In this document: positions 4,730 through 59,787 of the stretch, one piece after another
How the letters are laid out: each line of letters begins with the position of its first letter
Position numbering within the stretch: the first letter of the stretch is position 1
DNA from: Planctomycetales bacterium
GTDB lineage: Bacteria; Planctomycetota; Planctomycetia; Planctomycetales; Planctomycetaceae
Reading direction: 5' to 3'
Length of the DNA stretch: 64,000 nucleotides
Assembly: GCA_028285345.1 (NCBI GenBank)
Contig: JANQPT010000018.1
Coordinates: 79,779 to 143,778, forward strand
Program-made: the position numbers and the translations under genes
Notes under the pieces: model-generated
Told to the model about the DNA's origin: nothing
Databases searched by the model: none
Seen by the model: the letters and a program-made list of their open reading frames with translations, nothing else

Positions 4730-4802
4730 GCCCCGTTCGTCTAGTGGCCTAGGATACCGGGTTCTCAGTCCGGTGACACGGGTTCAAATCCCGTACGGGG
4801 TA
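4730..4802 (+). tRNA. tRNA-Glu (anticodon CTC)
   Basis: Hand-folded cloverleaf: acceptor GCCCCGT/ACGGGGT, anticodon stem CCGGG/TCCGG with loop TTCTCAG (CTC), T-arm ACGGG-TTCAAAT-CCCGT, discriminator A. Strong similarity to bacterial tRNA-Glu (GTCTAGTGGCCTAGGA D-region). Confidence 0.85.
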
Positions 4803-16301: not shown

Positions 16302-16894
16302 TGTTCCGCGCCCGAGTCTTGGTGTTGACGGCGTTCGCGCTTTGTGTGCTGTGCTGTCGAGTCGGCCGAACCGATGAGCAAAAGCCGTCTGCGAATGCCA
16401 AAGCCGGTCAAAATGGCGACGAGCCGACCGGTGAGGTGCGTGTCGTACTTCTCAAGGGGACGGTTACGTTTCTCGGACCCGCTCTGCGCAAGCAGGGAGT
16501 GAAGGCCTACAAGGAGATGGACCAGCAGGTCGTGTTGATCACCGACGGCGGCGAGATGGTGCCGCTGGTCGCCGACTGGCGAGGCCGGGCGTTTTATCAA
16601 GACAAACGGCTCCGCGACCGCAAAGTGGAGTTGGTCCTCCGCCGGCGGTCCAAGATTCCCTACGCACAGGTCATGTCAGTCTATACGTTCGACGATAAGA
16701 ACCGCCGACAATACACCGACTATTGGTGCGACATCTGTTCGATCCCGATGTACGAAATCAAGGATTGTGAATGCTGTCAGGGCCCGATCCGCCTGCGTTT
16801 TCAAGACCGCCCGCTGCCGTCGTACATTCGAGAGCAACTGAAGAGTGACGAGCGGAAGGATTCGCAAACCAAGCCGGACGATAAAGCCATGTAG
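16298..16894 (+). CDS. Secreted hypothetical protein with C-terminal Cys cluster (198 aa)
   Basis: Signal peptide MMFRARVLVLTAFALCVLCC. CDICSIPMYEIKDCECCQGP motif. Translationally coupled to the upstream gene. Confidence 0.55.
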   Translation: MMFRARVLVLTAFALCVLCCRVGRTDEQKPSANAKAGQNGDEPTGEVRVVLLKGTVTFLGPALRKQGVKAYKEMDQQVVLITDGGEMVPLVADWRGRAFYQDKRLRDRKVELVLRRRSKIPYAQVMSVYTFDDKNRRQYTDYWCDICSIPMYEIKDCECCQGPIRLRFQDRPLPSYIREQLKSDERKDSQTKPDDKAM

Positions 16895-17005
16895 GGTGCG
16901 TTGCGACGCACCGCCTATTTGTTGCATAAAGCATGGTGCGTCGCGACGCACCCTACGAAACTGACAAGACGCTGATTTCCGTTTCACCGCACCCTACGAA
17001 ACTGA
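16891..17005. repeat. REP-like palindromic element cluster (hairpin + CCCTAC tail), 3 units
   Basis: gtagggtgcgttgcgacgcacc (inverted unit), then ggtgcgtcgcgacgcaccctacgaaactga (18-bp perfect palindrome ggtgcgtcgcgacgcacc), then caccgcaccctacgaaactga. Same family as 49942..50085 and 59788..59808. Confidence 0.7.
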
Positions 17006-27868: not shown

Positions 27869-27908
27869 GGTTATTGGTTATGAGACGTAATAGACAAAAA
27901 TCATTCAT

Positions 27909-28121
27909 CGCGGAGACACGGAGCAGAAACAAATCCGAAGCACGAAATTCGAGATCCGAAACAAATTCAAAATACAAAACTCAAATGGCTGAAACATGTG
28001 AGATTAGGCCCAGCAGGAATCTGTAGACCGAAATGTTTTGGTCATTGGATATTCGGACATTCGAATTTGTTTCGGATTTCGTGCTTCGAATTTCGTATTC
28101 GAAACCTTCGTGTCTCCGTGA
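27909..28121. repeat. MITE-like intergenic element with inverted CGGAGACACGGAG termini
   Basis: Left end cggagacacggag (27911-27923), right end cgtgtctccgtg (28109-28120, reverse complement). The interior has internally repeated gaaat(t/c)cgaa/aagcacgaaat/ccgaaacaaattc units in inverted orientation. It fills the whole intergenic space. Confidence 0.6.
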
Positions 28122-28164
28122 TTTCCTAAATCTTAACCGACAGTCGGCAAGTGCGCAACCAATT

Positions 28165-30333: not shown

Positions 30334-30945
30334 ATGTGGGAAACCGTGCAGACCTATTTCAGCGGACCGATGCTGGTGCCCAGTGCGCTGTTGGCGTTGG
30401 TCTTGTTGTATTGGTTGTTCGTGATCTTAGGCGCGTTCGACATGGACGTCCTGGATATCGACGCCGACTTAGATATCGGCGGCGACTCCATTTTCGGCAT
30501 CGGATTCGTCGCATTGCGATTTCTGAATATCGGCGACGTGCCGATCATGGTTTGGTCTAGCGTCTTTGGACTCAGTTTTTGGATCATCACCGCGATGGTG
30601 GTCCGATTGTTTGCGGACGGGATTTCCGCAAGTCCTGTCGTCGCAGTGATCGGCAGTGGATTGGTTGCGATGTTCTTGTCCAAACTGATCACCAATCCGC
30701 TACGCGGAAAGTTTAATGCGAAGGAACCCAATACGGTCGCCGATTTGATGGGACAGACCTGTGTCATCACGGCTGAAACGAATAAACAGTATGGCCAGGC
30801 CGAAATACGAACGTCGGCAGCGCCATTGCTTCTAAACGTAAGAACACTTGAAGGAACCTTGGCCAAAGGGACGCAAGCCAAGATTGATGATTTCGACGCG
30901 GAAAACCACCTGTATTATGTAAGCGGTTCCGAAGGAAAGGTGTGA
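30334..30945 (+). CDS. NfeD/YqiJ-like membrane protein (flotillin-associated, OB-fold C-terminus)
   Basis: N-terminal TM helices, acidic DIDADLDIGGD loop, and C-terminal beta-rich domain (GQTCVITAETNKQYGQAEIRT). Placed immediately 5' of the flotillin gene, as in E. coli yqiJ-yqiK. Confidence 0.6.
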   Translation: MWETVQTYFSGPMLVPSALLALVLLYWLFVILGAFDMDVLDIDADLDIGGDSIFGIGFVALRFLNIGDVPIMVWSSVFGLSFWIITAMVVRLFADGISASPVVAVIGSGLVAMFLSKLITNPLRGKFNAKEPNTVADLMGQTCVITAETNKQYGQAEIRTSAAPLLLNVRTLEGTLAKGTQAKIDDFDAENHLYYVSGSEGKV

Positions 30946-30949
30946 GAAA

Positions 30950-33052
30950 ATGCCTTGGCAAGAATTGATAATCGTAATCGCTGGGATTGGAGTCGTTGCT
31001 CTCGGGCTTGGAGTCGGCTTTGCGCGGTTCTTCCGCAAGGTTGGTCCGGAAGAAGCTCTAGTCAAATCGGGTGCGGGCGGATTGAAGGTTGCAACTGGAA
31101 ACGGGATGTGGGTGATTCCCATCATGCACCGTGTCGAAACAATGGACCTCTCCGTCAAACGGATCGAAATCACGCGTCGCGGTGAAGCGGGCCTCATTTG
31201 CAGAGACAACATCCGCGCCGACATCGAAGTTGCCTTCTTCGTCCGCGTGAACAACACCGGCGAGGACATCAAAAACGTCGCGCAATCACTCGGCTGCCGA
31301 CGCGCGTCCGAACAGCGGGCTCTCGTCGAGCTGTTCGACGCCAAGTTCTCCGAAGCCCTCAAAACGGTCGGCAAGCAGTTTGATTTTGTCGAACTGTATA
31401 ACGAGCGGGACAAGTTCAAGGTCGAAATCCTCAAGGTCATCGGCACCGACCTCAACGGCTATATCCTTGATGACTGTGCCATCGACTACTTGGAACAGAC
31501 GCCGGTTGAGATGCTCAGCCCGAATAATATTCTCGATGCCGAAGGCATCAAGAAAATCACCGATCTGACAGCGCAGGAGCACATCCAGGCGAACGACATC
31601 ACCCGCGAAAAAGAAAAGACGATCAAGAAGCAGGACGTCGAAGCCCAGGAAACGATTCTGGAGCTCGAACGGCAGCGGGTTGAAGCGGTTGAGAAGCAAA
31701 AGCGGGAAATCGCCGAAGTCTCCGCCCGCGAGCAGGCTGAAGCGAAGCGCGTGCAGGAAGAAGAACGTCTTAAGGCAGAACGGGCACGGATTACGACCGA
31801 AGAAGAGGTCAGCATCGCCGACGAAAATAAGGACCGGCAGATCATCGTCGCCCGCAAGAGCAAGGAACGGACCGACGCGGTCGAGACCGAGCGGGTTGAG
31901 AAGGACCGCCTGTTGGAAGCGACCGAGCGGGAACGGGTCGTCACGTTGGCCCAGATCGAAAAAGACAAAGCGGTCGAAGTCGAAAAGCGGAATATCCAGG
32001 ACGTGATCCGCGAGCGGGTGGTTGTCGAGCGGGCGGTCGTCGAGCAACAGGAAAAGATCAAAGACACCGAAGAATTCGCCACCGCCGACCGTTTGAAACA
32101 GGTCACGGTCACCAAGGCGGAAATGGAAGCCCAAGAATCGTTGGTCAAGGAAGTCAAAGCGGCCGAAGCCTCCAAAACAGCGGCCGAACTGCTGGCCGAA
32201 CAGCGCGTCGTCGAAGCGGAAGCCGAACGGGCAGCCGCCGAGAAGGATACGCAGGCGCAGAAAATGCTCGCCGAAGCCAAAACGGCCGACGCGGCCGCCA
32301 TCGGATTGGCGGATGCACAGGTGCTGGAAGCCAGAGCGGTCGCCATCGAAAAAGAAGGCACGGCCGAGGCCAACGTCCTGCAGCGCAAAGCGGTCGCCGA
32401 AGCGAAGGGCATCGAAGCCAAAGCGACGGCCGTCGAAAAGCAAGGCACAGCCGAAGCGAGCGTGATGCACCTCAAGTTCACCAGCGAAGCGAAGGGCATC
32501 GAGGAAAAAGCCAACGCCATGAAACTGTTCGACGGCGTGGGCCGCGAACACGAGGAATTCAAGCTGCGATTGAACAAAGACAAGGATATCGAAATCGCCG
32601 CGATTTCGGCGCAACAGGAAATTGCCGAAGCGCAGGCGGACATTGTCGGCGAAGCCCTCAAGTCGGCCCGCATCGACATCGTGGGCGGCGAAACGACCTT
32701 CTTCGACAAGATCGTCGATTCGATCAAGGGCGGAAAAGCGGTCGACCGCTTCGTGCACAACAGCGAAGTACTGACCGACGTGAAGAACTCATTCTTCAAC
32801 GGCAATCCGGACTACTTCCGCGACAAGTTGCAAGATTTTGTCGGCCAGTTCAACATGAGCTTCGACGATGTCAAGGATCTCAGCATCGCCGCATTGATCG
32901 GCAAGATGCTCACGCAGTCCGAAAGCGACGAAACGACGTCGGAACTGCAGCGGCTGCTCACGATGGTCAAAGGGACCGGCCTGGCCGATAAAAAGGTCGG
33001 CACGCTGAACATCGGCGGCCAGACCCTGACGATCGGCGGCAAGGACTCGTAA
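30950..33052 (+). CDS. Flotillin-like SPFH/band-7 protein (YqiK/FloT type) with long Ala/Glu-rich coiled-coil tail
   Basis: N-terminal TM plus SPFH core (GPEEALVKSGAGGLKVATGNGMWVIPIMHRVETMDLSVKRIEI...ICRDNIRADIEVAFFVRV). Then ~400 aa of EA/KA-rich repeats (flotillin domain). 4-nt gap from the NfeD-like gene. Confidence 0.8.
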   Translation: MPWQELIIVIAGIGVVALGLGVGFARFFRKVGPEEALVKSGAGGLKVATGNGMWVIPIMHRVETMDLSVKRIEITRRGEAGLICRDNIRADIEVAFFVRVNNTGEDIKNVAQSLGCRRASEQRALVELFDAKFSEALKTVGKQFDFVELYNERDKFKVEILKVIGTDLNGYILDDCAIDYLEQTPVEMLSPNNILDAEGIKKITDLTAQEHIQANDITREKEKTIKKQDVEAQETILELERQRVEAVEKQKREIAEVSAREQAEAKRVQEEERLKAERARITTEEEVSIADENKDRQIIVARKSKERTDAVETERVEKDRLLEATERERVVTLAQIEKDKAVEVEKRNIQDVIRERVVVERAVVEQQEKIKDTEEFATADRLKQVTVTKAEMEAQESLVKEVKAAEASKTAAELLAEQRVVEAEAERAAAEKDTQAQKMLAEAKTADAAAIGLADAQVLEARAVAIEKEGTAEANVLQRKAVAEAKGIEAKATAVEKQGTAEASVMHLKFTSEAKGIEEKANAMKLFDGVGREHEEFKLRLNKDKDIEIAAISAQQEIAEAQADIVGEALKSARIDIVGGETTFFDKIVDSIKGGKAVDRFVHNSEVLTDVKNSFFNGNPDYFRDKLQDFVGQFNMSFDDVKDLSIAALIGKMLTQSESDETTSELQRLLTMVKGTGLADKKVGTLNIGGQTLTIGGKDS

Positions 33053-33094
33053 AGATATTCGAACGTTGACGAAGTGGATTTGAAACCACAGAGT

Positions 33095-33255
33095 CACGGA
33101 GACACGGAGAGTTGCTAAACTGCAGCCGAATCGTTTACTTCGGTGATATCAAGGCACCAAGGCAGCTTTGAATCTCCCGACTTCGTGAGTTCCGCCACAG
33201 AAATTCTCAAGCTGTGCGTCGAGAGTTTTATCTGTGTGCCTCCGTGCCTCCATGG
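33095..33255. repeat. MITE-like intergenic element with inverted (CACGGAG)n termini
   Basis: Left cacggagacacggag (33095-33109), right gtgcctccgtgcctccatgg (33236-33255, reverse complement ccatggaggcacggaggcac). The interior is unrelated to the 27909 element. Sits between the flotillin stop and the giant ORF start. Confidence 0.6.
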
Positions 33256-33265
33256 TTAATTCAAT

Positions 33266-36200
33266 TTGCAGAATTCTGGACACGCCCCCATGGCTCAAGC
33301 AGAACTCGACAAGACAGCCGCGGAGGAAGAAGCCGCGCCGGCGGTTGAGCTGCAGGGCAGTACGTATGAGATTATCCGCAACCGGCTGAACACGCACGGG
33401 ACGGAGCTTCGCAGCCGGCTGGAGCAGCTCAACGACGCCCGCAAGGAGGTGTTCGGCTCGATCGACACGGTGCTGCTCTCTACGGAGCGGATCACCACCG
33501 AGCATAACTGTGAGCCCCGCGACATGGTCGCTGTCGGGAACCGATTCTTGTTCGGCTACAACGTGCATTTCGGCCTCAAGTCGGAACGGCACCTCTCCGA
33601 CGTCTTCTCAGCCTACGAATTCAAAGAAGGCGGATTCCACGAACTGCCGCTGGACATCGTTTCCGACCCGCGGTTTGAAAAGGACTTCCAGGACGTTTAC
33701 CGCTACTACAAGAACGCAGTGTTCGCCAAGTTTTTCGTCCGCGGGCCGCACTTGTATATGATCTTTCGCGTGGGCAAGGGTGTCCACGACATTAAGACCT
33801 TCAAATGGGCCCTGCAGGGCGACGAGTTGGTCTACGTCGACAATCGCAGCGACCACGAAGTCCGCTACCCTCCACAACACGAGTTCGAGTGGACCCGCAC
33901 GCACCGCGATCTGCATCAAACCGGCCAACACCCGCACATCTCGATCGAAGACCGCATCTTCGTCGAGACCATCGGCGGGGATTTGACGATCAAAGTCGAG
34001 AACAACACCGACTCGGGCGAGGGCATTTATTCCGAACCGGTCGACGACCCGGACCAGACGCTCGACGATGCGGAAATTTATTACGCCGCCGTCGGCAACG
34101 TGATTCTGCTGAAGGTCAAACCTTACCAAGAGCAGACATTTCGCTACTTCGTCTACAACGAAAAGCTGCAACAGGCGCAGCGGCTCGACGCACTGGAATA
34201 CGCGTGCGTCCTGCTGCCCGACGACCACGGGTTGATCTTCGCCGACGGCTACTATTTGCAGACGGGGTTGTGCAAGACGTTCGGCAGCAATCTGGTCGAC
34301 ATGATCTTCGAACGCCGCATCGCGGCGGCCAACGGTGAAGATTACCTCTACGTGTTTTATAACCGTCTGGCCGGCGTGTATGTGCTGTTGCAATACAATC
34401 TGATCGAGCAGCGCGTGGAAACACCCGTCATCTGCAACGGTTTCACGTTCTTCCCCAACGGCGAGATGGTCTGCTTCAAGGCGCAGGAGGAACCGCAAAA
34501 GCATCATGCGGTGCAGGTTTGGCAGACGCCGTATGTGGGCGAAGACTACGTGCCGCACTCGCAGACCGACTCGTTCCTGTTCAAGATCGGCAATAAGGAT
34601 ATCGTCCGCGGCATGGCGGAATGCCATGAACTGCTGGAGTTGATTGAAAAAGAGGACACGTACGCCAATCTGTACGTCGACATCACCAAAGAAGCGAGCG
34701 GCATCGTCGATTCGTACTTTTGGGTCGACAAGCCGGAGACGTTTGACCTCAAAGAGCCGCTGGTCAAGATTCGCGACGCCGCATCCGCCGCCGTTGATGA
34801 GTTCGACAAAGTCGTCCGCGTCAAACAGGACACCGCCCGGCAGACCAAACGGGTCAGTGAACAAGCCCGCGAGATCATCTCCGCCGTCGGCCATAAGCGG
34901 TTCGACCACATCAACGATTTCGTCGGATCGCTCAGAGATCTGCGTTCGGTCCGGGGCGACATCATTTCGCTCCGCGATCTGCGGTATGTTGACGAACCGC
35001 TCGTTGAATCACTGGAGAACGAAGTCTCCGAACAGGCGGACAAACTGGCACAGCGGTGCGTGACGTTTTTGCTCGACCCGGCGGCGCTCACGCCTTACGA
35101 GCAAAAAGTCGCGGCTGAACAAGGGAAAATCGACGGTCTCACAAAAGTCACCGATGCCAAAGCGGTCGAGGAGGACATCTCCACCAGCGCCACGGAATTG
35201 GAGATGCTGATCGAGATCGTCAGCAACCTGAAGATTGACGACGCCACACAGCGAACGGCGATCATCGACAACATCTCGGCGATTTTCTCGACGGTCAACG
35301 CCGCCCGCGCGGCCCTGAAGAACAAGACGCAAGAGTTGCTCTCGGTCGAAGGCATCGCCGAGTTCAACTCGCAAATGAAGCTGCTCAACCAGGGGGTCGT
35401 CAACTACCTCGACATCTGTGACACGCCGGAGAAGTGTGAAGAATTCCTCACCAAGGTGATGATCCAGATTGAGGAATTAGAGGGCCGGTTCGCGGAATTC
35501 GACGAATTCGTCGTACAGCTCAGCGAAAAGCGGGAAGAAATTTACAACGCGTTTGAAACGCGCAAGCTGTCGCTGGTCGAAGCCCGTAACAAACGCGCAA
35601 GCGCCCTGGCCAATGCCGCCGACCGGATTCTCAAAGGGATCAAGACCCGCGTCGACAGCCTGGAGTCGATCAACGACATCAACGGCTACTTCGCGTCGGA
35701 CTTGATGATCGAAAAAGTCCGCGACATCGTCGAGCAGCTCAAGGAACTTGACGATACGGTCAAGGTCGACGACATCCAAAGCCGGCTCAAGACCGTCAAG
35801 GAAGATGCGGTCCGGCAACTCAAGGACCGGCAGGAGCTGTTTGTCGAAGGCGACAACATCATCAAGCTGGGCGAGCACCGCTTCTCCGTGAACGTGCAGG
35901 CGCTCGATTTGACAACTGTGCTCCGCGACGGCGAGATGAATCTGCACCTTACCGGAACGAACTTCTTCGAGCCGATCAAAAATGAGACTTTGACCGCGAC
36001 CCGTGACGTCTGGGACCAAGAGGTCGTCTCCGAGAACCGCCAAGTCTATCGCGGCGAATATTTGAGCTACAAAATCCTGCAATCGCTGCGGGAACCGGGC
36101 GCCGAGCCGTCGCTCGACGAACTCCACAACTACGACGAAAAACAATTGGCCGCCTACGTGCAGCGGTTCATGGGGCCGCGTTACGGCGAGGCTTACGTCA

Positions 36201-38656
36201 AAGGCGTGCACGATCAAGACGCGGCAAAACTCCTCGCCGGCCTATTGGAGATGGAAGCGACGATCGGGCTGCTCCGCTATCACACCCGCGCCCGGGCGAT
36301 GGCGTCGGTGCTGTGGCAGCACTTCGGTGACAAGAAACACAAAACACTGCTGGCCGCGAAGCTGAAGGGATTCGGCGCTGTTGCGGAATTGTTTCCGCAG
36401 ACTGCCGCCCAAACGGACTACATCACAGAACTCAGCGAGGTGCTTCAAGCTGCCGCAGCTGAGTCGGAGTTGTTCTCTGAGGAGTTCCTCGATCCCGCTG
36501 CGGAATACTTGTTTCACAACTTGTCGACCTCCGGCGAGGCGATTAGTCCACAAGCGGCGCAACTCTATCGCGATTTCGAGGAACACCTGCAGCGCAGCGG
36601 ATTCTCTGACAAGTATGAAAAGTCGCTCAAGGCGGTCCACCGTGACCCGGCCAGTGCTTTCTCTCTGGTTCGCGATTGGGTGCGTGCCTTTGTCGAGCAG
36701 CAAGACGGCGCGGAGCTAAACGACTATGTCGACGAAGTCTCGGCCCTGTTGCTGGCAGGCAAGCTCAACGACCTGCACATCGTCAACGCCGACGTCACCT
36801 GCGAAGTCTCCGGCCTTACGGGCACGCATGCCGTGATCCACGAAGGAGGATACGACCTCAATTACAGCCGGTTTACGCACAAACTGGCCGCATATGACGC
36901 TCAGGTTGTGCCACGCTACAACCAATATGTGCAGCTCAAGAAAGACATCGTTGACGCCTCACGTGACGAAATGAAACTGGAAGAGTTCCGGCCCCGCGTG
37001 CTGACCTCGTTTGTCCGCAACCGGTTATTGGACGAAGTTTATCTTCCGCTGATCGGCGACAACCTGGCCAAACAGATCGGCGCCGCGGGTGAAGGCAAGC
37101 GGACCGACCGCATGGGCTTGCTCTTGCTGGTCTCGCCTCCGGGATATGGCAAGACGACGTTGATGGAGTACATCGCCAATCGGCTGGGGATTATCTTCAT
37201 GAAGATCAACGGGCCGGCGATCGGGCATCAGGTTACGTCGCTCGATCCCAATGAGGCCCCCAACGCCGGCGCGCGCGAAGAAGTCGAGAAGCTGAACCTC
37301 GCCCTGGAAATGGGCGACAACGTGATGATCTACCTCGACGACATTCAGCACTGCAACCCGGAGTTTCTGCAGAAATTCATTTCACTCTGCGACGCGACCC
37401 GCAAGATTGAAGGCGTGTATAAAGGCCGCACGCGGACTTATGATCTGCGCGGCCGCAAGGTCGCCGTTGTCATGGCCGGGAACCCCTATACTGAGAGCGG
37501 CGAGAAGTTTCAGATTCCCGACATGCTCTCCAACCGGGCCGATATCTACAATCTGGGCGAGATCATTGGCGAGCATGCGGCGTCGTTTGAAATGAGCTAT
37601 TTGGAGAACTGCCTCACCTCTAATCCGGTGTTGAATAACCTGGCCAGTCGCAGCCAAAGAGATGTGTATGCCGTGATCCGCATGGCGGAGCGCGACAGCG
37701 CCGAAGGGGCCGACCTGGAGGGAAACTATTCGGCCGAAGAACTGGGCGAGATGGTCTCCACCATGAAAAAGTTGATGACGGTCCGTGACGTGATTTTGAC
37801 CGTCAACCGCGAGTACATCCGCTCCGCCGCCCAGTCCGACGACTACCGCACCGAACCGGCGTTCAAACTGCAGGGTTCGTACCGGAACATGAACCGGATT
37901 GCCGAAAAGGTCGTGCCGGTAATGAACGACGACGAGTTGCAGGCGCTGATTGTGTCCAACTACGAAAACGACTCGCAGACGCTCACCTCCGATGCCGAAG
38001 CGAACATGCTCAAATTTAAGGAGTTAATCGGCATCCTTAATGACGAGGAAGCGAAGCGTTGGGCGAACATCAAGAAGACCTTTTCGCAAAACGTCAAGCT
38101 CCGCGGGGTCGACGCCGACGACAAGGTTGGGCAGATTATCGTGCAGATGAGTTCGTTCACGGACGGGCTGGACGCGATTCGCGACGCGATGACGGCCGGG
38201 ATTACTCAACTCGTGCGGCAGGGCGAGGGCTCAGAGTTGGACGAACATTTTACACAACTTTCGGCGCAGATCAGCAGCCTGCGGGAAGGGCTGGACGCAA
38301 TTCACGGCAGCCTTTCCGACGGAATCCCCGCGCTGGTGACTGCGACAGAGCGTCCCGATCCGCCCGCAGTGGTGCAGAAACCCGCAGCGCCCCCGCCGCC
38401 CTCAGACGAGAGCATCATTCAGACATCCGCCGGATCGCAGAAGATCACCGTCGTCAACAAACTGCCCCGCAGCGTCTACAACGTGCTGCAACAGCAATTC
38501 GACCTGATGCGGAATTGGATGAAGCCGCTGTTGGAATCGACCACAACGCAATCGGCGGAAATCGAGAAACTTAAGGAAACCGTCATCCAATGTCTCAAGG
38601 ATTACAACCGCATGCTCCGCCGCATCGAGCAGGACGACAAATCGAAGTCATCGTGA
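33266..38656 (+). CDS. Giant (1796 aa) multidomain protein with a single MoxR/dynein-type AAA+ ATPase core
   Basis: Walker A LLLLVSPPGYGKTTL (nt ~37133-37159). Walker B VMIYLDDIQ (nt ~37328-37342). Sensor/Arg-finger region VAVVMAGNPYTESGEKFQIPDMLSNRADIYNL. N-terminal ~600 aa globular, ~600 aa helical/coiled-coil middle, helical C-terminus ending in a Pro-rich stretch. Possible true start at MAQAELDK (33290). Confidence 0.7.
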   Translation: MQNSGHAPMAQAELDKTAAEEEAAPAVELQGSTYEIIRNRLNTHGTELRSRLEQLNDARKEVFGSIDTVLLSTERITTEHNCEPRDMVAVGNRFLFGYNVHFGLKSERHLSDVFSAYEFKEGGFHELPLDIVSDPRFEKDFQDVYRYYKNAVFAKFFVRGPHLYMIFRVGKGVHDIKTFKWALQGDELVYVDNRSDHEVRYPPQHEFEWTRTHRDLHQTGQHPHISIEDRIFVETIGGDLTIKVENNTDSGEGIYSEPVDDPDQTLDDAEIYYAAVGNVILLKVKPYQEQTFRYFVYNEKLQQAQRLDALEYACVLLPDDHGLIFADGYYLQTGLCKTFGSNLVDMIFERRIAAANGEDYLYVFYNRLAGVYVLLQYNLIEQRVETPVICNGFTFFPNGEMVCFKAQEEPQKHHAVQVWQTPYVGEDYVPHSQTDSFLFKIGNKDIVRGMAECHELLELIEKEDTYANLYVDITKEASGIVDSYFWVDKPETFDLKEPLVKIRDAASAAVDEFDKVVRVKQDTARQTKRVSEQAREIISAVGHKRFDHINDFVGSLRDLRSVRGDIISLRDLRYVDEPLVESLENEVSEQADKLAQRCVTFLLDPAALTPYEQKVAAEQGKIDGLTKVTDAKAVEEDISTSATELEMLIEIVSNLKIDDATQRTAIIDNISAIFSTVNAARAALKNKTQELLSVEGIAEFNSQMKLLNQGVVNYLDICDTPEKCEEFLTKVMIQIEELEGRFAEFDEFVVQLSEKREEIYNAFETRKLSLVEARNKRASALANAADRILKGIKTRVDSLESINDINGYFASDLMIEKVRDIVEQLKELDDTVKVDDIQSRLKTVKEDAVRQLKDRQELFVEGDNIIKLGEHRFSVNVQALDLTTVLRDGEMNLHLTGTNFFEPIKNETLTATRDVWDQEVVSENRQVYRGEYLSYKILQSLREPGAEPSLDELHNYDEKQLAAYVQRFMGPRYGEAYVKGVHDQDAAKLLAGLLEMEATIGLLRYHTRARAMASVLWQHFGDKKHKTLLAAKLKGFGAVAELFPQTAAQTDYITELSEVLQAAAAESELFSEEFLDPAAEYLFHNLSTSGEAISPQAAQLYRDFEEHLQRSGFSDKYEKSLKAVHRDPASAFSLVRDWVRAFVEQQDGAELNDYVDEVSALLLAGKLNDLHIVNADVTCEVSGLTGTHAVIHEGGYDLNYSRFTHKLAAYDAQVVPRYNQYVQLKKDIVDASRDEMKLEEFRPRVLTSFVRNRLLDEVYLPLIGDNLAKQIGAAGEGKRTDRMGLLLLVSPPGYGKTTLMEYIANRLGIIFMKINGPAIGHQVTSLDPNEAPNAGAREEVEKLNLALEMGDNVMIYLDDIQHCNPEFLQKFISLCDATRKIEGVYKGRTRTYDLRGRKVAVVMAGNPYTESGEKFQIPDMLSNRADIYNLGEIIGEHAASFEMSYLENCLTSNPVLNNLASRSQRDVYAVIRMAERDSAEGADLEGNYSAEELGEMVSTMKKLMTVRDVILTVNREYIRSAAQSDDYRTEPAFKLQGSYRNMNRIAEKVVPVMNDDELQALIVSNYENDSQTLTSDAEANMLKFKELIGILNDEEAKRWANIKKTFSQNVKLRGVDADDKVGQIIVQMSSFTDGLDAIRDAMTAGITQLVRQGEGSELDEHFTQLSAQISSLREGLDAIHGSLSDGIPALVTATERPDPPAVVQKPAAPPPPSDESIIQTSAGSQKITVVNKLPRSVYNVLQQQFDLMRNWMKPLLESTTTQSAEIEKLKETVIQCLKDYNRMLRRIEQDDKSKSS

Positions 38657-49941: not shown

Positions 49942-50085
49942 GTAGGGTCCGCTGTGCGGACCATTGAGTTGATGGGAAAACGCCCCAATTGACAGCTTGC
50001 TTGCCGAACAAAAACAAATCACAAGAATGTGAATTTTTCATTCGAGATGCGAATCTTCCGTCCTGGTCCGCACAGCGGACCCTAC
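49942..50085. repeat. REP-like inverted pair (GTAGGGTCCGCTGTGCGGACC ... GGTCCGCACAGCGGACCCTAC)
   Basis: Two 21-nt units in inverted orientation separated by ~100 bp, each a hairpin (ggtccgc/gcggacc) plus a CTAC tail. Same family as 16891..17005 and 59788..59808. Confidence 0.7.
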
Positions 50086-51249: not shown

Positions 51250-54200
51250 CTATTTGGGGGGATGTTCGACGGAAATTGGCTTGCCGTCACGATCGGTCAA
51301 CCGGACTCCGAAGGCCCAGCGTGCGCCGAGCTGCGTGACCTTGATGAGCACCCGATTCACGCCCTTGCGGGCCTTGACCGGAAGGGCATTTTGATCGGGC
51401 GCGTAACCCCGCCCCCCGTCGGTGTCGAAACGCCCCGCCTCTTGGCCGTTGAACCAGCATTTGAAACCGTCGTTACTGCCGACTTGCAGCACCAGTTCAC
51501 GATCTTGGGGAAGATTGAACTCGGCGTACGCGTAAGCCGCGACACCCGCCATCGGACCGTAAAGGGTCGCCAGGTCCACCATGCCGTTTTCGTCGTCGGT
51601 GACAAAGTTTCGCCATTCAAGCGCCCGGCCGGCCACAGTCTGCTTGTGGTGGACATCGACATTCGGCTCGCCCACCATCACCGCATCGATGGGGTGTTTC
51701 TCGTTCCACGGCACGGGGGCGATTAAGCTCCAGCGGCTAAGTCCACCGTTGCGGTTAGTTTGCTCGTCGATGGGAGCGCCAAGCTGCTCCAGATTTTGCA
51801 GCACGAGATCGTAGACCTCGTCGCTCTGAGTGCTCTTCAGAGTCCGCTTCAGAGCCGCCACAAGCTGCGGCTTATCGGCGGGATTTTGTCGGGCCTGTGC
51901 TACGAGTGTCGAAACATGTTCGAGGACTACCTTCTGATCGCCGTAGCAAACAATGCCGCCGTCTGTCAGGCTCACCAGAATCCGCCCGTCTCGGTCGACG
52001 GCCAGCCCGCCGGGGCGCGCGTCGCCGGGCAAAGTCCGTTCCCATAACATGTGGCCGTTGTTGACGTCCAGGGCGCAAATAATCCAGCGCGAATGACGGC
52101 TGCGCGCTTTGGGCATCTCGCAGATGGCCAGCACCGCATTGGGTGTCAACGTGAGGGCGATCGTATCGCTGCCGGCCAGCGATTCGGCCACCCAGCGCGG
52201 CTTCGGCTTTTTGCCTCCCTGCAGGTACTTCTCAATCGCGTCCGCGTCGTAACACGCGGGAACGGCCAACCGGCCGTCGACCATCGCCATAGCGTCGTCG
52301 TTCCAGGTCGGCGGAATTTTTCCTTGATGCAATCTCTGGGCGTTGCCGACGCCCCGCTGCGGCTGGATCGCGAAGCCGGCGAACTGTCCCGGATTAACCA
52401 CGTTTTCAATCGGCGAAAATCGCAGCCGACCGCCGAGGATCAAATGCTTGTCTCTGAAGATGCCGATCTCTTCGCCGCGATTGCCTTGAGGAGAACCGTC
52501 GCCGGGAGAATTGCCCAGATATTCGCCAGTCTTCAGGTGATACGCCGCCGGTGAGACCACGTTTCCGCCCGGCATCCACAAGCGCCCTTCGGCAATCGTC
52601 AAATCACCGTGGGCGGAAACCCCTTTGCGCAAGTCGGGATCGAGATGCCCGGAGGAATGGTTCTGCCAAATGATCTCGCCCGTCTTGGCGTCCAGCGCGA
52701 AGACGTAAGTGCCGTCGTAATCGATCATCCCCGCCGCCGCGTAGGCGATGCCGTCCTGCACCAGCACTCCGGTGTGCACCGGCCAGATGGAAGAAAGGTT
52801 GCCGTAGATCGGAACCCGCCGCTGGGCCGGAGCGGCGCGGAAACGCCACAGCAAATCTCCGCTGGCCGCGTCGAGTGCGTAGACGTAGCCGTCGCCCGAA
52901 CCGAAGTAGGCGCGGCCGTCGGCAATTGTGGGGGGCTGCATGATCGGACCGCCGGTGAGGAAGGCCCATTTCAGGTTGCCGCTGACTGCGTCGATCGCGC
53001 GAATCTTGCCATCGTCGCCCGCTTGATAGATCAACCCGCCCGCCGCCGTGACAGGCGTCGGCCGATAACCGGGCGTCGCCGGCTGAAAGTCCCAAATCTT
53101 GCCCACACCGGCCGGCGTGCCGACCTCGGTTGCCGAACCGCGTGAATTGCCGCCGCGATAGCCGGCCCAGTCTGCCGGCTGCACGGAAACGGCGGTATCG
53201 GGATTCAACGTCTGTCCGGTCTTTTCCAGCCGCTGCTCGTTGGTCGCGGTTTGCTCAAATTTGAAATCGCCCGCCGAGGCGAGCGCGATGCGGCCGAGGA
53301 CCATCAAATTGCAATCGCAGGGCCACGGACCAGTGTAGAGCAAGCCGTTGGCGGCGACGACGCCGTCGTTACAACCGGGGCGGAATGCGCCGTTGAACAT
53401 GACTTTCTTTCGCTCGCGGTCATAGCGAGTCAACCCGTCGGGCCAGCCGCGGCAAAACAGCGAATCGGAGGTGCCTGTCAGCCGCGCGCAGGAGCGTTTG
53501 GTGAATCCCAATTCGCCCCGCACGTCGCCGGTGGCGGGGTCGATCATCTGTGTCGTCCCATTCTTGCCGACTCCCAATATGACACTGTCGTCCAAGAACA
53601 AGGCGTTGGGATTGTTCGTCGTTTTTCTTTTATTCCAGAGCGGATAACCATCCGACGTCGAGATGGCGACCACATTCATCCGCGTCTGTCCTTGAAAGAT
53701 CAGCGCGTCGGGAGTGTGGACGCACATCGTCATCGAGCGGAACCCGGGCGTTGACGACAACCCGCGTCCTTCCTGCGCAATCATTTTGCGGACTTCGGGG
53801 TCTTTGTTCTCCCAGATCTCCCGGCCGGTCTTGGCATCGAGGCCGACGATCCGTGAGTCGGGTGCGTAGAGAAAGATCTTTTCGCCCCCCATCACCATGC
53901 CGCGTGAGTCGATCGGCGTCTTTTCCTTGTGGATCCAGCGGCGTTTTTTGGCGTCGAGGTCGTAGGCAACGAGCGTCTTACCGAATCCCCACGGGACACG
54001 TTTTTTGTAGTAGCCCTTGCTCAGTTCACCCCAACTCCAGTGGGTGCGCTGGCTGCGGACAATCATTGTTTCGGTTTCGCCCCCTTTGTCGCCCACCAGC
54101 GCGTATAGCATGCCATCCTGCAGCGCCATCCATTTCCATTGGCCCCGCGCGCCGGCGACATCGATGCGGCCGATTTCGTCGCCGGTCTCCGGATTGAGCA

Positions 54201-55140
54201 TTAACACCCCGCTGCCGTCGGTGTCGATCATGTAGAATACGTCGTCGGTGGCAATGAATGCGGAGCGGTGCACGAGATATCCGGCGGGCAATTTACGCGT
54301 CCAGAGAATCGTGCCGTTGTAGCCGTTGCGGGCGATCAGCGTATTCAGCCATTCCTCTTCGCGTTTGTGATGGGCAATGTGGCCGATGGCATTAAACATC
54401 CGCCCGCCCGCCGCGGTGGTGATCGCGGGCATCGAAATGTAATACGGCAATCCGAGCCATTTGGTCATGTACGGCGCTTTGATGACATTGTCTTTGGAGA
54501 CCGGGTTGTTGTCCGGGCTGTGTTCCCAGTGCGTCCAGTCGTCGACCCCTTCTTGCGGCGGTTTGGTGAGGATCGCCCAGGTGCCGAATTCGTCGGAAAC
54601 GACTTTTGCGTCGGCGACGTCGGCTTTTTTGATCCAGCTTTTCAACTGATCGGCGCTCAGATCGCCGCCGCCGGCTTTCGCTTGGCCGAGAATCGCCTTG
54701 CCCAGCGGCCGCAATGCCCGCAGCACTTCCGCCGGTTTTAGTTGCTGCAACTTGTCCGGCGTCAGGTCCGTTGCCAGCAGCAGGTCGATGGTGTTTTCCG
54801 CATACGGCAATTGCTCCGCGCTGCCGGATTCGAGCACGCAGCGGGAACCGTACAATCCAGCCGCGTCAACGGCTTTGCGGGCGGATGCGACTTTGGCCGC
54901 GTCGGCGTTCCAACCGTGCACGAACAGCTCGGACGCTTCCGTGAGATTTTGCAACAGGTCGTCGTCCCGCCAGCCAATGACGGTGCAAAGTCCGCGGTCA
55001 ATCCCGGCCGTTTCAACAAGATGCACGGCCAAATCGCTGGAATATTGTTGCGCGCGGAGCGTGCGACTGGCCGGCGTCGTGACGAGAATCAACGCGAGCG
55101 CGCAGATCAACAACGATCCGTTGCGGAATGGACGTGCCAT
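51250..55140 (-). CDS. Giant PQQ-repeat beta-propeller protein with N-terminal methyltransferase-like domain
   Basis: Signal peptide MARPFRNGSLLICALALILVTTPA. N-terminal LCTVIGWRDDDLL...VHGWNADAAKVASARKAV (class-I MTase-like). Multiple PQQ-type repeats (GLIYQAGDDGKIRAIDAVSGNLKW, RAYFGSGDGYVYALDAASGDLLW, IAYAAAGMIDYDGTYVFALDAKTGEIIW). Start at ATG 55140. The ORF-track extension to 55296 is rejected. Confidence 0.7.
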   Translation of the reverse strand: MARPFRNGSLLICALALILVTTPASRTLRAQQYSSDLAVHLVETAGIDRGLCTVIGWRDDDLLQNLTEASELFVHGWNADAAKVASARKAVDAAGLYGSRCVLESGSAEQLPYAENTIDLLLATDLTPDKLQQLKPAEVLRALRPLGKAILGQAKAGGGDLSADQLKSWIKKADVADAKVVSDEFGTWAILTKPPQEGVDDWTHWEHSPDNNPVSKDNVIKAPYMTKWLGLPYYISMPAITTAAGGRMFNAIGHIAHHKREEEWLNTLIARNGYNGTILWTRKLPAGYLVHRSAFIATDDVFYMIDTDGSGVLMLNPETGDEIGRIDVAGARGQWKWMALQDGMLYALVGDKGGETETMIVRSQRTHWSWGELSKGYYKKRVPWGFGKTLVAYDLDAKKRRWIHKEKTPIDSRGMVMGGEKIFLYAPDSRIVGLDAKTGREIWENKDPEVRKMIAQEGRGLSSTPGFRSMTMCVHTPDALIFQGQTRMNVVAISTSDGYPLWNKRKTTNNPNALFLDDSVILGVGKNGTTQMIDPATGDVRGELGFTKRSCARLTGTSDSLFCRGWPDGLTRYDRERKKVMFNGAFRPGCNDGVVAANGLLYTGPWPCDCNLMVLGRIALASAGDFKFEQTATNEQRLEKTGQTLNPDTAVSVQPADWAGYRGGNSRGSATEVGTPAGVGKIWDFQPATPGYRPTPVTAAGGLIYQAGDDGKIRAIDAVSGNLKWAFLTGGPIMQPPTIADGRAYFGSGDGYVYALDAASGDLLWRFRAAPAQRRVPIYGNLSSIWPVHTGVLVQDGIAYAAAGMIDYDGTYVFALDAKTGEIIWQNHSSGHLDPDLRKGVSAHGDLTIAEGRLWMPGGNVVSPAAYHLKTGEYLGNSPGDGSPQGNRGEEIGIFRDKHLILGGRLRFSPIENVVNPGQFAGFAIQPQRGVGNAQRLHQGKIPPTWNDDAMAMVDGRLAVPACYDADAIEKYLQGGKKPKPRWVAESLAGSDTIALTLTPNAVLAICEMPKARSRHSRWIICALDVNNGHMLWERTLPGDARPGGLAVDRDGRILVSLTDGGIVCYGDQKVVLEHVSTLVAQARQNPADKPQLVAALKRTLKSTQSDEVYDLVLQNLEQLGAPIDEQTNRNGGLSRWSLIAPVPWNEKHPIDAVMVGEPNVDVHHKQTVAGRALEWRNFVTDDENGMVDLATLYGPMAGVAAYAYAEFNLPQDRELVLQVGSNDGFKCWFNGQEAGRFDTDGGRGYAPDQNALPVKARKGVNRVLIKVTQLGARWAFGVRLTDRDGKPISVEHPPK

Positions 55141-55277
55141 GGGGGGACCTCCTCTTGTCGCGGAAACGAGAGACCGTGGGGTGCAAGCGCGTGCCAACCC
55201 GTTCAGCCTAATCCGGAGCGAACGGCCCGTCAACGTGCGGGCGGAAAGCTCGTTCGCAAATGCCGGTTTTGGTGAAC

Positions 55278-55336
55278 CACGGAGACACGGAGGCACGGAG
55301 TTTCTTACCTCGTTCCCAAACTCCTGTTTGGGAACG
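55278..55336. repeat. (CACGGAG)n motif plus palindromic hairpin
   Basis: cacggagacacggaggcacggag (55278-55300) followed by the perfect hairpin cgttcccaaac-tcct-gtttgggaacg (55311-55336). Related to the termini of the elements at 27909 and 33095. Confidence 0.55.
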
Positions 55337-59296: not shown

Positions 59297-59669
59297 CCGG
59301 AGTGGGCTAAGCGGCCGCTGCGGGGCACATGTTGCTCCGGAGAGGAAAGTCCGGGCTCCACAGGGCGCAGCGGTGGGTAACACCCACCGTCCGCGAGGAT
59401 CGGGAAAGTGCAACAGAAAGTATACCGCCCGTAAGGGTAAGGGTGAAATGGTGGGGTAAGAGCCCACCGCGAGGCGGGTGACCGTCTCGGCACGGCAAAC
59501 CCCGCTGGGAGCAAGACCAAGCAGAGAGCAGTTCCGGGAAGTCCGCTTCCCGGACGCGGACCGGCCCGGGCCGTTACGACTTTCGGGTAGGTTGCTGGAG
59601 GCGTCGGGCAACCGGCGTCCTAGACAAATGGCCGCTCACGACACAACCCGGCTTATCGGCCCGCTCCGG
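59297..59669 (+). ncRNA. rnpB: RNase P RNA (rnpB), bacterial type A
   Basis: Universally conserved GAGGAAAGTCCGGGCTCCACAGGGC (P4 5' strand). GGTAAGGGTGAAATGGTGGGGTAAGAGCCCACC (P10-P12 region). ACAACCCGGCTTATCGG 3' P4 strand. P1 pairing between ccggagtgggc (59297-) and gcccgctccgg (-59669), followed by a T-run. No plausible protein across it. Confidence 0.85.
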
Positions 59670-59787
59670 TTTTTTTGTGATTCTCCGCGCCGCCGCGCAA
59701 CTCAAACCGACCGTTTGCGGTCGTGCTCGATTTGCGGATGTCGGGGATTCACTCATGCTGCACTCTTAGATTGACAATAATGAAATC

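Follow-up and report, generated by a model that had tools for sequence, protein, structure and literature searches.

Tandem copies of the sequence CACGGAG open three intergenic regions in a 64-kb stretch of a Planctomycetales genome (hereafter the window, meaning the whole of the 64,000 nucleotides that were analysed), and in two of these regions they face their own reverse complement across an intervening sequence. This arrangement raises the question of what kind of genetic element the three regions represent. An initial annotation, made from the letters alone, likened them to miniature inverted-repeat elements (MITEs) or to a family of structured regulatory or terminator repeats. As set out below, the same repeats recur in other genomes, where they also enclose genes of the GxxExxY family.

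Tandem octamers at three intergenic sites

Tandem CACGGAG units are located at positions 27909-27923, 33087-33109 and 55278-55300 of the window, and runs of the reverse complement are found at 28106-28120 and 33240-33254. The initial annotation described the units as heptamers. The tandem repeats are real, but the unit is 8 nt rather than 7: Tandem Repeats Finder reports a period of 8 that comprises the heptamer core CACGGAG and one additional base, usually a purine (consensus CACGGAGA). When at most one mismatch is allowed, the sequence CACGGAGNCACGGAG has 7 matches in the window compared with 0.03 expected, all of them at the three sites (E1, E2 and E3), and this count was reached in none of 100 shuffles of the window. 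Tandem runs of the generalised unit C-R-C-N-R-A-G are likewise confined to E1, E2 and E3 (0.24 expected in the window). The single heptamer is barely enriched (19 occurrences versus 10.8 expected), so it is the tandem arrangement that stands out from chance.

The E1 element (27907..28122) is complete and lacks an ORF, with two-unit arms surrounding 182 nt. Its left arm, ATCGCGGAGACACGGAG (27907..27923, plus strand), reads AT-CGCGGAG-A-CACGGAG, and its right arm, CTTCGTGTCTCCGTGAT (28106..28122, minus strand), has the reverse complement AT-CACGGAG-A-CACGAAG; these 17-nt arms are 88% complementary. The AT-rich interior (27926..28103) consists of ~14-nt units of the TTCGAATTTCGT type that form a second, inner inverted repeat, with arms at about 27926-27971 and 28060-28103, and resembles a nested hairpin. 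It is unique in the window and unlike the interiors of other copies. E1 as a whole folds as a near-perfect hairpin of ~215 nt, with dG values of -90.1 (z -8.2) and -86.9 (z -7.2) for the two strands.

The E2 element (33084..33257), also complete and ORF-less, has three-unit arms around 120 nt. The left arm AACCACAGAGTCACGGAGACACGGAGA (33084..33110, plus strand) reads AAC-CACAGAG-T-CACGGAG-A-CACGGAG-A, and the right arm TCTGTGTGCCTCCGTGCCTCCATGGTT (33231..33257, minus strand) has the reverse complement AAC-CATGGAG-G-CACGGAG-G-CACACAG-A. These arms are 27 nt long and 78% complementary, and the interior of 120 nt is unstructured and non-repetitive. Thus the initial claim that two regions close with the reverse complement of their opening repeat is borne out, as is the statement that the interiors are unrelated, but internal repetition is a feature of E1 only.

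The E3 element (55275..55300, plus strand) is a solo three-unit arm, AAC-CACGGAG-A-CACGGAG-G-CACGGAG, whose octamer run at 55278-55300 is CACGGAGACACGGAGGCACGGAG. A partner search found no second arm above background. The initial annotation pointed to a perfect hairpin at this site, and indeed an 11-bp stem with a 4-nt loop, CGTTCCCAAAC/GTTTGGGAACG, adjoins E3 at 55311..55336. However, this hairpin is not built from octamers and carries no T-run, and its membership in the family is doubtful.

The genes on either side of each element are co-directional. E1 is situated between the stop codon (28165) of an MsrP-like molybdopterin oxidoreductase gene and the start codon (27868/27862) of an oxoprolinase/hydantoinase gene, both on the minus strand. 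E2 is found on the plus strand between the stop codon (33052) of a 700-aa gene and the start codon (ATG 33290) of a 1,788-aa DUF3686/AAA gene. E3 resides in a 210-nt spacer between the stop codon (55351) of a TSP_NTD-protein gene and the start codon (about 55140) of a PQQ-repeat protein gene, both on the minus strand; a longer ORF for the latter exists because reading runs through the E3 arm, and the real start is near 55140. The sites had been placed between convergent or tandem gene ends, but none is convergent. Similarly, E2 was said to separate a flotillin gene from a giant AAA+ gene. The downstream DUF3686/AAA gene agrees with this description, but the 700-aa protein is only weakly flotillin-like, the sole basis for the label being a FloT match with an E value of 1.7e-5, far below the cut-off.

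Architecture and distribution of the repeat family

One genome per species was scanned for exact matches to three units in a row, (CACGGAGN)2CACGGAG, which yielded at least 120 loci. Among the matches listed, the arms are nearly always ordered plus then minus. This order reads alike on both strands, so that every element starts 5'-CACGGAG and ends CTCCGTG-3'. The listed matches include 63 such pairs from genome loci whose arms are separated by 600 nt or less, and 98 pairs once viral-contig loci are added and the spacing limit is removed. Loops in the 98 listed pairs have a median length of 75 nt, and 81 of them are shorter than 150 nt. Overall, loop lengths range from 6 to 480 nt, loop sequences are mutually unrelated, and most copies have a total size of 60-140 bp.

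Paired arms are present in at least eight phyla, with representatives in Planctomycetota (several orders), Acidobacteriota (three classes), Chloroflexota, Myxococcota, Desulfobacterota, Nitrospirota, Thiotrichales, Kiritimatiellia and Gemmatimonadota. The solo runs seen in Cyanobacteria and Actinobacteria are perhaps not part of the family. The triple unit also occurs on 44 IMG/VR viral contigs, and a pattern search of viral contigs found no GxxExxY gene.

The general architecture can be written (A)TTCAC/AAC-(CACGGAGR)2-8 ... (YCTCCGTG)2-8-GTGAA(T)/GTT, in which the octamer has the form C-R-C-N-R-A-G-R and is most often CACGGAGR. A position-by-position tally of the flanks gives the consensus A-T-T-C-A-C before the first unit, mirrored after the last, and the frequency of pairing is 0.6-0.9 over the 5 nt outside the arms and random beyond. 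Inside the arms, about four A's (AAAA) stand opposite four T's (TTTT), after which the sequence becomes random. The conserved module is therefore a stem of ~32 bp with a loop that is free in both sequence and length. T is almost entirely missing from the 5' arm, as is A from the 3' arm, and all reading frames through the arms are free of stop codons. Consequently, gene callers read through them. Masking the octamer elements would improve the calling of start sites, including that of the PQQ ORF that extends into E3 and those of the MIHHGDTEARSK proteins described below.

The initial annotation proposed a search for target-site duplications. No such duplication is visible at E1 or E2. Among the matches listed, direct repeats at the borders of the 63 paired elements are distributed as in controls with swapped flanks, which means that the family as a whole gives no indication of target-site duplication. 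The elements of one MAG share genome-specific termini (GGGC/GCCC, TTGAA/TTCAA, TCTCA/AGAGA) but not loops; median loop similarity is 0.32 for pairs from the same MAG versus 0.24 for pairs from different MAGs. Related loops within one genome are limited to one tandem duplicate and a weak likeness among three copies in L099. Because interiors are unrelated, both in the window and in single MAGs, the copies lack the appearance of transposed offspring of a single master MITE, and the loops of one genome do not point to the copying of whole elements.

We also surveyed the neighbours of 55 elements across genomes and found 11 between divergent genes. This context analysis is crude, and its tandem, convergent and divergent figures are indicative only, because ORFs that run through the stop-free arms confound it.

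Association of the octamer stem with GxxExxY genes

The loops of L033 and L103 (about 380-480 nt) and a neighbouring gene at L099 encode proteins that match TIGR04256 ('GxxExxY') with E values of 1e-44 to 1e-47. Their Pfam assignment is PF13366 (PDDEXK_3), a predicted nuclease family. In a reverse test, we collected 80 metagenomic loci encoding relatives of these three proteins. Within this sample, which is biased towards relatives of arm-flanked queries, a CACGGAG-type arm in the correct orientation lies no more than 200 nt from the gene at 57 of the 80 loci (48 upstream, 53 downstream and 44 on both sides). Nearly all of the other 23 loci carry variant octamer arms in the same architecture.

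The variant units at GxxExxY loci include CGCGGAG/CGCAGAG, CGCCGAG, CAGTGAG, CGCAAAG, CACAAAG and CACGAAG. Wherever one arm is a variant, the opposite arm is always altered to match, and octamer positions C1, C3, A6 and G7 are constant throughout. The octamer stem is the characteristic frame of GxxExxY genes, with the gene residing in the loop. Arm type does not track the encoded protein: at non-orthologous loci, GxxExxY protein similarity is 0.66 when arm types match versus 0.66 when they do not, which argues against cognate specificity between protein and arm.

Translated arm peptides are present at the ends of several of 40 GxxExxY representatives whose mutual identity is at most 50%. One orthologous group is annotated publicly as 136-137-aa proteins that start with MIHHGDTEARSK, which is the translated 5' arm. 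In this group the ATG/GTG and the stop codon of the preceding gene overlap, and indels are frame-preserving. In another orthologous group the start codon is ~20 nt past the arm, and thus the arm is not there for coding. Orthologous groups of GxxExxY cassettes are found between co-directional genes, where they sit tight against stop and start codons.

Several features tie the window elements to these cassettes. Both E1 and E2 have inverted arms of at least two C-R-C-N-R-A-G-N octamers whose CAC ends face outward. Pairing also extends past the octamers in E2 (AAC...GTT), and E3 has the corresponding AAC, whereas E1 has only AT...AT. At L163, a GxxExxY cassette and an empty frame (an element without the gene) on one contig share AAC/GTT termini, as in E2 and E3. 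The variant units of the window, CGCGGAG and CACGAAG in E1 and CACAGAG in E2, are the same as those at GxxExxY loci. Neither E1 nor E2 encloses a GxxExxY ORF, and no GxxExxY gene was found in the window by tblastn and an HMM search of its six-frame translation. We consider it very probable that E1, E2 and E3 belong to the octamer-armed, GxxExxY-linked repeat family.

Empty frames predominate. Among the matches listed in the exact-triple sample (genome and viral), only 3 of the 98 paired elements hold a GxxExxY gene and 95 are empty. A search of the empty loops recovered no GxxExxY remnant in any of them, and an origin from decayed genes was rejected. No other cargo family was found between arms, and no transposase was detected between the arms in 164 loci among the matches listed. 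Separately, one HIT-family gene is flanked by another octamer, GAGTGCTG, and an RAYT-like ORF in L004 is flanked by ordinary REPs rather than octamer arms.

The protein family itself (PF13366/TIGR04256) is very large, comprising 28,014 clusters at 50% identity (E <=1e-3), and is functionally uncharacterised and nearly absent from the literature, in which GxxExxY, PF13366 and TIGR04256 turned up only as incidental mentions. A predicted structure is of low confidence (pLDDT 55), was derived from a shallow alignment and gives no significant fold match, and a PDB sequence search, PADLOC and PHROGs returned nothing useful for GxxExxY. The association with a conserved stem suggests that this stem and its empty copies are candidate biochemical substrates, as well as a repeat family for which a census can be taken.

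Persistence, turnover and possible origins of the elements

The gene order around E1 and E2 is kept in relatives at about 70% protein identity (L246 and L248). At the junction between the 700-aa gene and the DUF3686 gene, an octamer-armed hairpin is present in all three lineages, and the arms of these E2 orthologues are conserved while their loops are unrelated in sequence and length. The L246 and L248 orthologues share an unusual 9-nt second unit, and the 3' arm of the L246 orthologue carries a matching 9-nt unit that keeps the stem in register. The occurrence of an octamer hairpin at the same junction in relatives this distant (~70%) indicates that E2 is not a recent insertion. The E2 stem is retained orthologously across a divergence over which neutral intergenic DNA would be expected to lose all recognisable similarity.

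Other sites show turnover. The junction between the MsrP and oxoprolinase genes carries no E1-like element in the relatives, and E1 is lineage-specific. Also, the GDPD to MsrP junction of L246 carries an additional element, built of CACAAAGGT-type units, that is missing from the window. The absence of E1 from relatives, the extra element in L246 and the retention of E2 together indicate that frames are gained or lost, and that at some sites they are retained. No orthologues of the E3 junction were found; the relatives reach no more than 49% identity there and lack synteny. The roughly 65 kb of sequence from the syntenic relatives contains no GxxExxY gene.

The arms evolve jointly. Members of one orthologous GxxExxY locus differ in unit type, and in each the three units of both arms have changed as one (CACGGAG, CACAGAG or CACGAAG), which is concerted evolution in situ. 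The simplest account would combine slippage among tandem units with templated correction from arm to arm, for which quasipalindrome mutagenesis is the established basis.

Our best explanation, to which we give an even chance of being correct as a composite, is that E1 and E2 are empty frames, and E3 half of one, of a GxxExxY repeat family that behaves in a REPIN-like manner. According to this proposal, the ORF-bearing frames of a genome and its far more numerous empty frames would form a single population, much as REPINs do with RAYT genes. Frames would be seeded between genes without target duplication, probably by a process driven by the nuclease or by recombination, and the palindromes would be kept homogeneous by the slippage and arm-to-arm correction noted above. 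The putative GxxExxY nuclease might act on the hairpin or on a cruciform, and their presence at operon junctions would be tolerable, since the insert can fold out into a stem-loop. Several findings weigh against this proposal: GxxExxY genes are absent from the window and from the syntenic relatives, few frames hold the gene, the loops of copies in one genome are largely unrelated, and arm type is independent of the protein. A more ambitious formulation, which we offer tentatively and think more doubtful than probable, is that stem and GxxExxY gene constitute a previously undescribed selfish or semi-domesticated system present in at least eight phyla, a PD-(D/E)XK analogue of REPIN-RAYT. In such a system, a small nuclease specific for structure or repeat would act on the hairpin or cruciform that C-R-C-N-R-A-G-R repeats form and thereby copy or maintain ORF-bearing and empty frames between genes without target duplication, while the stem would fold the insert out of operon transcripts.

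The most serious competing explanation holds that the elements are host-functional stem-loops at operon junctions, serving mRNA processing or stability, attenuation or a DNA-level site and recognised by a conserved host factor, with GxxExxY a mere passenger. We regard this as unlikely on balance, though several observations agree with it. The long retention of E2 in three lineages with conserved arms and wholly different loops is explained by a host function no less well than by the REPIN-like reading, and the matching 9-nt units, which preserve the register of the L246 stem, point the same way. A host role would also accord with the placement of the window copies and the GxxExxY cassette groups between co-directional genes and tight to stop and start codons, with the invariance of C1, C3, A6 and G7 across octamer variants, and with arm types that do not follow the GxxExxY protein.

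Other observations speak against a host function, although a structured-RNA role may still apply. An RNA stem selected on the sense strand should favour G.U mismatches, and no such bias is seen: arm mismatches in 69 cassettes oriented by their ORF comprise 41 G.T/T.G versus 43 A.C/C.A, and those in 19 empty frames oriented by co-directional neighbours comprise 8 G.U versus 5 A.C, counts in which many loci are not independent. Folding is about equally good for the two strands of E1, and likewise for those of E2. The three sites show no sigma-70-like promoter and, on either strand, no intrinsic terminator. Moreover, E1 and the extra L246 element have been gained or lost between relatives, E2 itself is decaying (its arms being 78% complementary), 11 of 55 elements in the crude context analysis lie between divergent genes, and there is no known candidate for the host factor.

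More specific RNA-level functions were also considered. The proposal in the initial annotation of a terminator repeat family fails at all three sites, none of which has a GC-rich stem followed by a T-run, and a terminator identity is further disfavoured by the elements that the crude analysis places between divergent genes. A search of the window and eight additional loci against Rfam 15, at gathering and permissive thresholds, returned only far-sub-threshold matches to miRNA precursors, which reflect generic hairpin noise. The GGAG of the 5' arm and the CCUCC of the 3' arm suggested mimicry of Shine-Dalgarno and anti-Shine-Dalgarno sequences, an idea rejected because the variants CGCAGAG, CAGTGAG and CGCAAAG lack these motifs. 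CsrA-like arrays of CANGGANG were set aside on two grounds: variant arms lack the motif, and its location is within the stem.

A classical MITE would be a deletion derivative of an insertion sequence with a DDE transposase, whose terminal inverted repeats allow the derivative to be mobilised in trans. The window elements resemble MITEs such as Nezha, Correia/NEMIS and ERIC in being small, non-coding, intergenic and bounded by inverted repeats (E1 and E2, though not E3, which has no partner arm), in their capacity to form long hairpins, in their several copies, and in their presence or absence between relatives. The existence of longer, ORF-bearing relatives likewise lends the MITE-like label of the initial annotation some justification. 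However, there is no target-site duplication and no shared interior, the stem alone being common to the copies, and arms made of tandem octamers in variable number are atypical of terminal inverted repeats. No transposase-encoding parent was recognised among the loci examined; relatives with the same arms encode GxxExxY/PF13366 proteins, which are the only ORFs found within arms and are not a known transposase. With no target-site duplication, shared interior, terminator signature or Rfam match, E1 to E3 are not classical MITEs or terminators, and we judge a MITE origin very improbable.

Slightly less credible still is the idea that the elements are attC-like, or otherwise substrates of a site-specific recombinase that uses hairpin sites with conserved ends and variable centres. 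Their conserved outer stem, hypervariable centre and typical size of 60-140 bp recall such sites, and some copies, including E2, end in AAC...GTT (E3 has AAC). On the other hand, the ends of the family are TTCAC/GTGAA in consensus rather than RYYYAAC/GTTRRRY, the copies are dispersed singly among housekeeping genes rather than in cassette arrays, any gene lies inside the hairpin instead of beside it, and no integrase gene is located beside any copy examined. Finally, chance or trivial simple-sequence repeats at three unrelated sites, an idea to which the weak enrichment of the single heptamer lends a little colour, can be dismissed with near certainty given the 7 tandem matches against 0.03 expected and the recurrence of the same termini and inverted pairing across sites and phyla.

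Among known repeats, the REPIN-like reading finds its closest parallel in REP and REPIN elements and their RAYT gene (Bertels & Rainey 2011, PMC3116915; Di Nocera 2013, PMC3733652; Nunvar 2010). The octamer elements are likewise short, extragenic, palindromic repeats with many copies, genome-specific variants and no target-site duplication, and the window holds three intergenic copies of such imperfect palindromes in 64 kb. Both kinds of element are often long-lived and vertically inherited, and in both cases the gene for the nuclease (a predicted one for GxxExxY) is itself flanked by repeats in inverted orientation. The octamer frames differ in that they accompany a PD-(D/E)XK (PF13366) gene rather than an HUH Y1 transposase, lack the GTAG/CGTC tag (the consensus being ATTCAC/GTGAAT, and the window copies having AT or AAC), and have arms made of tandem octamers in variable number. 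The octamer core is also common to at least eight phyla, whereas REPs are lineage-specific. Empty copies of the octamer stem populate intergenic DNA across many poorly studied phyla. The link to GxxExxY would carry the notion of REP-like repeat populations coupled to a nuclease gene beyond HUH transposases to another nuclease fold. In genome annotations, GxxExxY genes are multi-copy, whereas RAYTs are typically single-copy.

Cyanobacterial STRR sequences, tandem heptamers such as CCCCAGT, TTGGTCA and CAACAGT reportedly described by Mazel in 1990, offer a second parallel. Like the octamer elements, they are intergenic tandem arrays of a short unit (7-8 nt), often in inverted pairs that could form hairpins. 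In contrast, the octamer elements have a period of 8 rather than 7, the unit CACGGAGR, defined borders and a link to a gene family, and they reach far beyond the heterocystous cyanobacteria. STRR heptamers are also mentioned in PMC2670836.

With regard to the gene-bearing form, intervening sequences of 23S rRNA are said to carry a small ORF (Ralph and McClelland, 1993). They share with the octamer cassettes a small ORF within a long-range stem of terminal inverted repeats, insertion in a transcribed unit and the ability to fold out, but the octamer elements occupy mRNA operon junctions or intergenic DNA, and most copies are empty. In the more ambitious formulation above, the long-range stem would be an mRNA counterpart of rRNA intervening sequences.

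A literature search with the exact repeat strings retrieved no papers, and REP surveys do not include the octamer family. In the searchable literature, whose coverage is partial, and in Rfam, the octamer repeat and its link to GxxExxY are apparently without earlier description. The window also contains GTAG-tagged, REPIN-like dimers, which belong to the class surveyed in PMC3733652, a survey from which the octamer family is missing. Because these dimers are located in the same window as E1 to E3, two systems coexist there.

Tandem-repeat-armed palindromes and nested frames

In other genomes, different tandem 7-9-mers serve as the arms of hairpins or lie beside ordinary genes. Such non-CACGGAG arms are found at loci L057 (664-758), L040 (6547-6646 and 7018-7114) and L080 (1633-1711), and further at L090 (about 2000-2600) and L249 (3300-3360), with units that include GTGCTGAC, NTCAGCNN, GCGGAAA, CAGTCNA (period 7) and four copies of CCTCAAGC. 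A HIT-family gene is enclosed by GAGTGCTG units. Because arms are built elsewhere from different tandem repeats, the CACGGAG family may be one part of a broader class of tandem-repeat-armed palindromes.

Frames, meaning inverted arm pairs around a loop, are also observed in nested form. At locus L103 (7240-7767), an octamer frame encloses a frame of 9-nt units (CACAGAGGT/GACGGAGGG), which in turn encloses the gene for GxxExxY, a PD-(D/E)XK-family protein. At L080 (355-450) a GAGGACGAGG/CCTCGTCCTC stem encloses a CACGGAG frame, and in the window an AT-rich hairpin (27926-28103) lies inside the complete octamer-armed hairpin E1. The loops of frames may be preferred landing sites.

Genes associated with octamer elements

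Gene order in a three-gene set (window 30334-38656; L246 1-4703; L248 1-4907) is kept between the window and its relatives, with approximately 70% protein identity. Its members are a 203-aa protein without a family, a 700-aa protein that is weakly FloT-like (E 1.7e-5), and a giant 1,788-aa DUF3686/DUF7902/AAA protein, directly upstream of whose gene there is always an octamer hairpin (window, L246, L248).

Because the arms lack stop codons, ORFs are called too long. For the PQQ-repeat protein, the mechanically called ORF (window 51250-55296, minus strand) begins with a GTG within the solo arm E3, and a signal-peptide-like start (MARPFRNGSLLICALALILV...) is located near 55140, 52 codons downstream of this GTG. 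Many top representatives of the GxxExxY family (P0241-P0260) are ~270-295 aa in length and carry two tandem GxxExxY domains, of which the second diverges more. These proteins constitute a fused two-domain subfamily and are not products of read-through into the arms.

Other repeats and RNA genes

GTAG-tagged palindromes occur in the window as head-to-head dimers at 16891-16956 (also 16980-16997) and 49942-50085, with the sequences GTAGGGTGCGTTGCGACGCACC ... GGTGCGTCGCGACGCACCCTAC and GTAGGGTCCGCTGTGCGGACCA ... TGGTCCGCACAGCGGACCCTAC; the latter pair is 100% complementary at a spacing of 100 nt. These dimers have the appearance of classical REPIN-type elements, and look like a second repeat family of this genome that is distinct from the octamer family. 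Two small hairpins that resemble each other, GCCGAaTCACGACcGCAAgtGGTCGGC and GCCGATCACGACGGCAAAGCCGTCGGC, are present at two adjacent junctions of the relative L246 (7105-7135 and 8090-8120) and represent another small repeat family of Planctomycetaceae-like genomes. The window also carries an ordinary bacterial RNase P class A RNA (59299-59671; 287 bits) and an ordinary tRNA gene (4730-4802), both without relation to the octamer elements.
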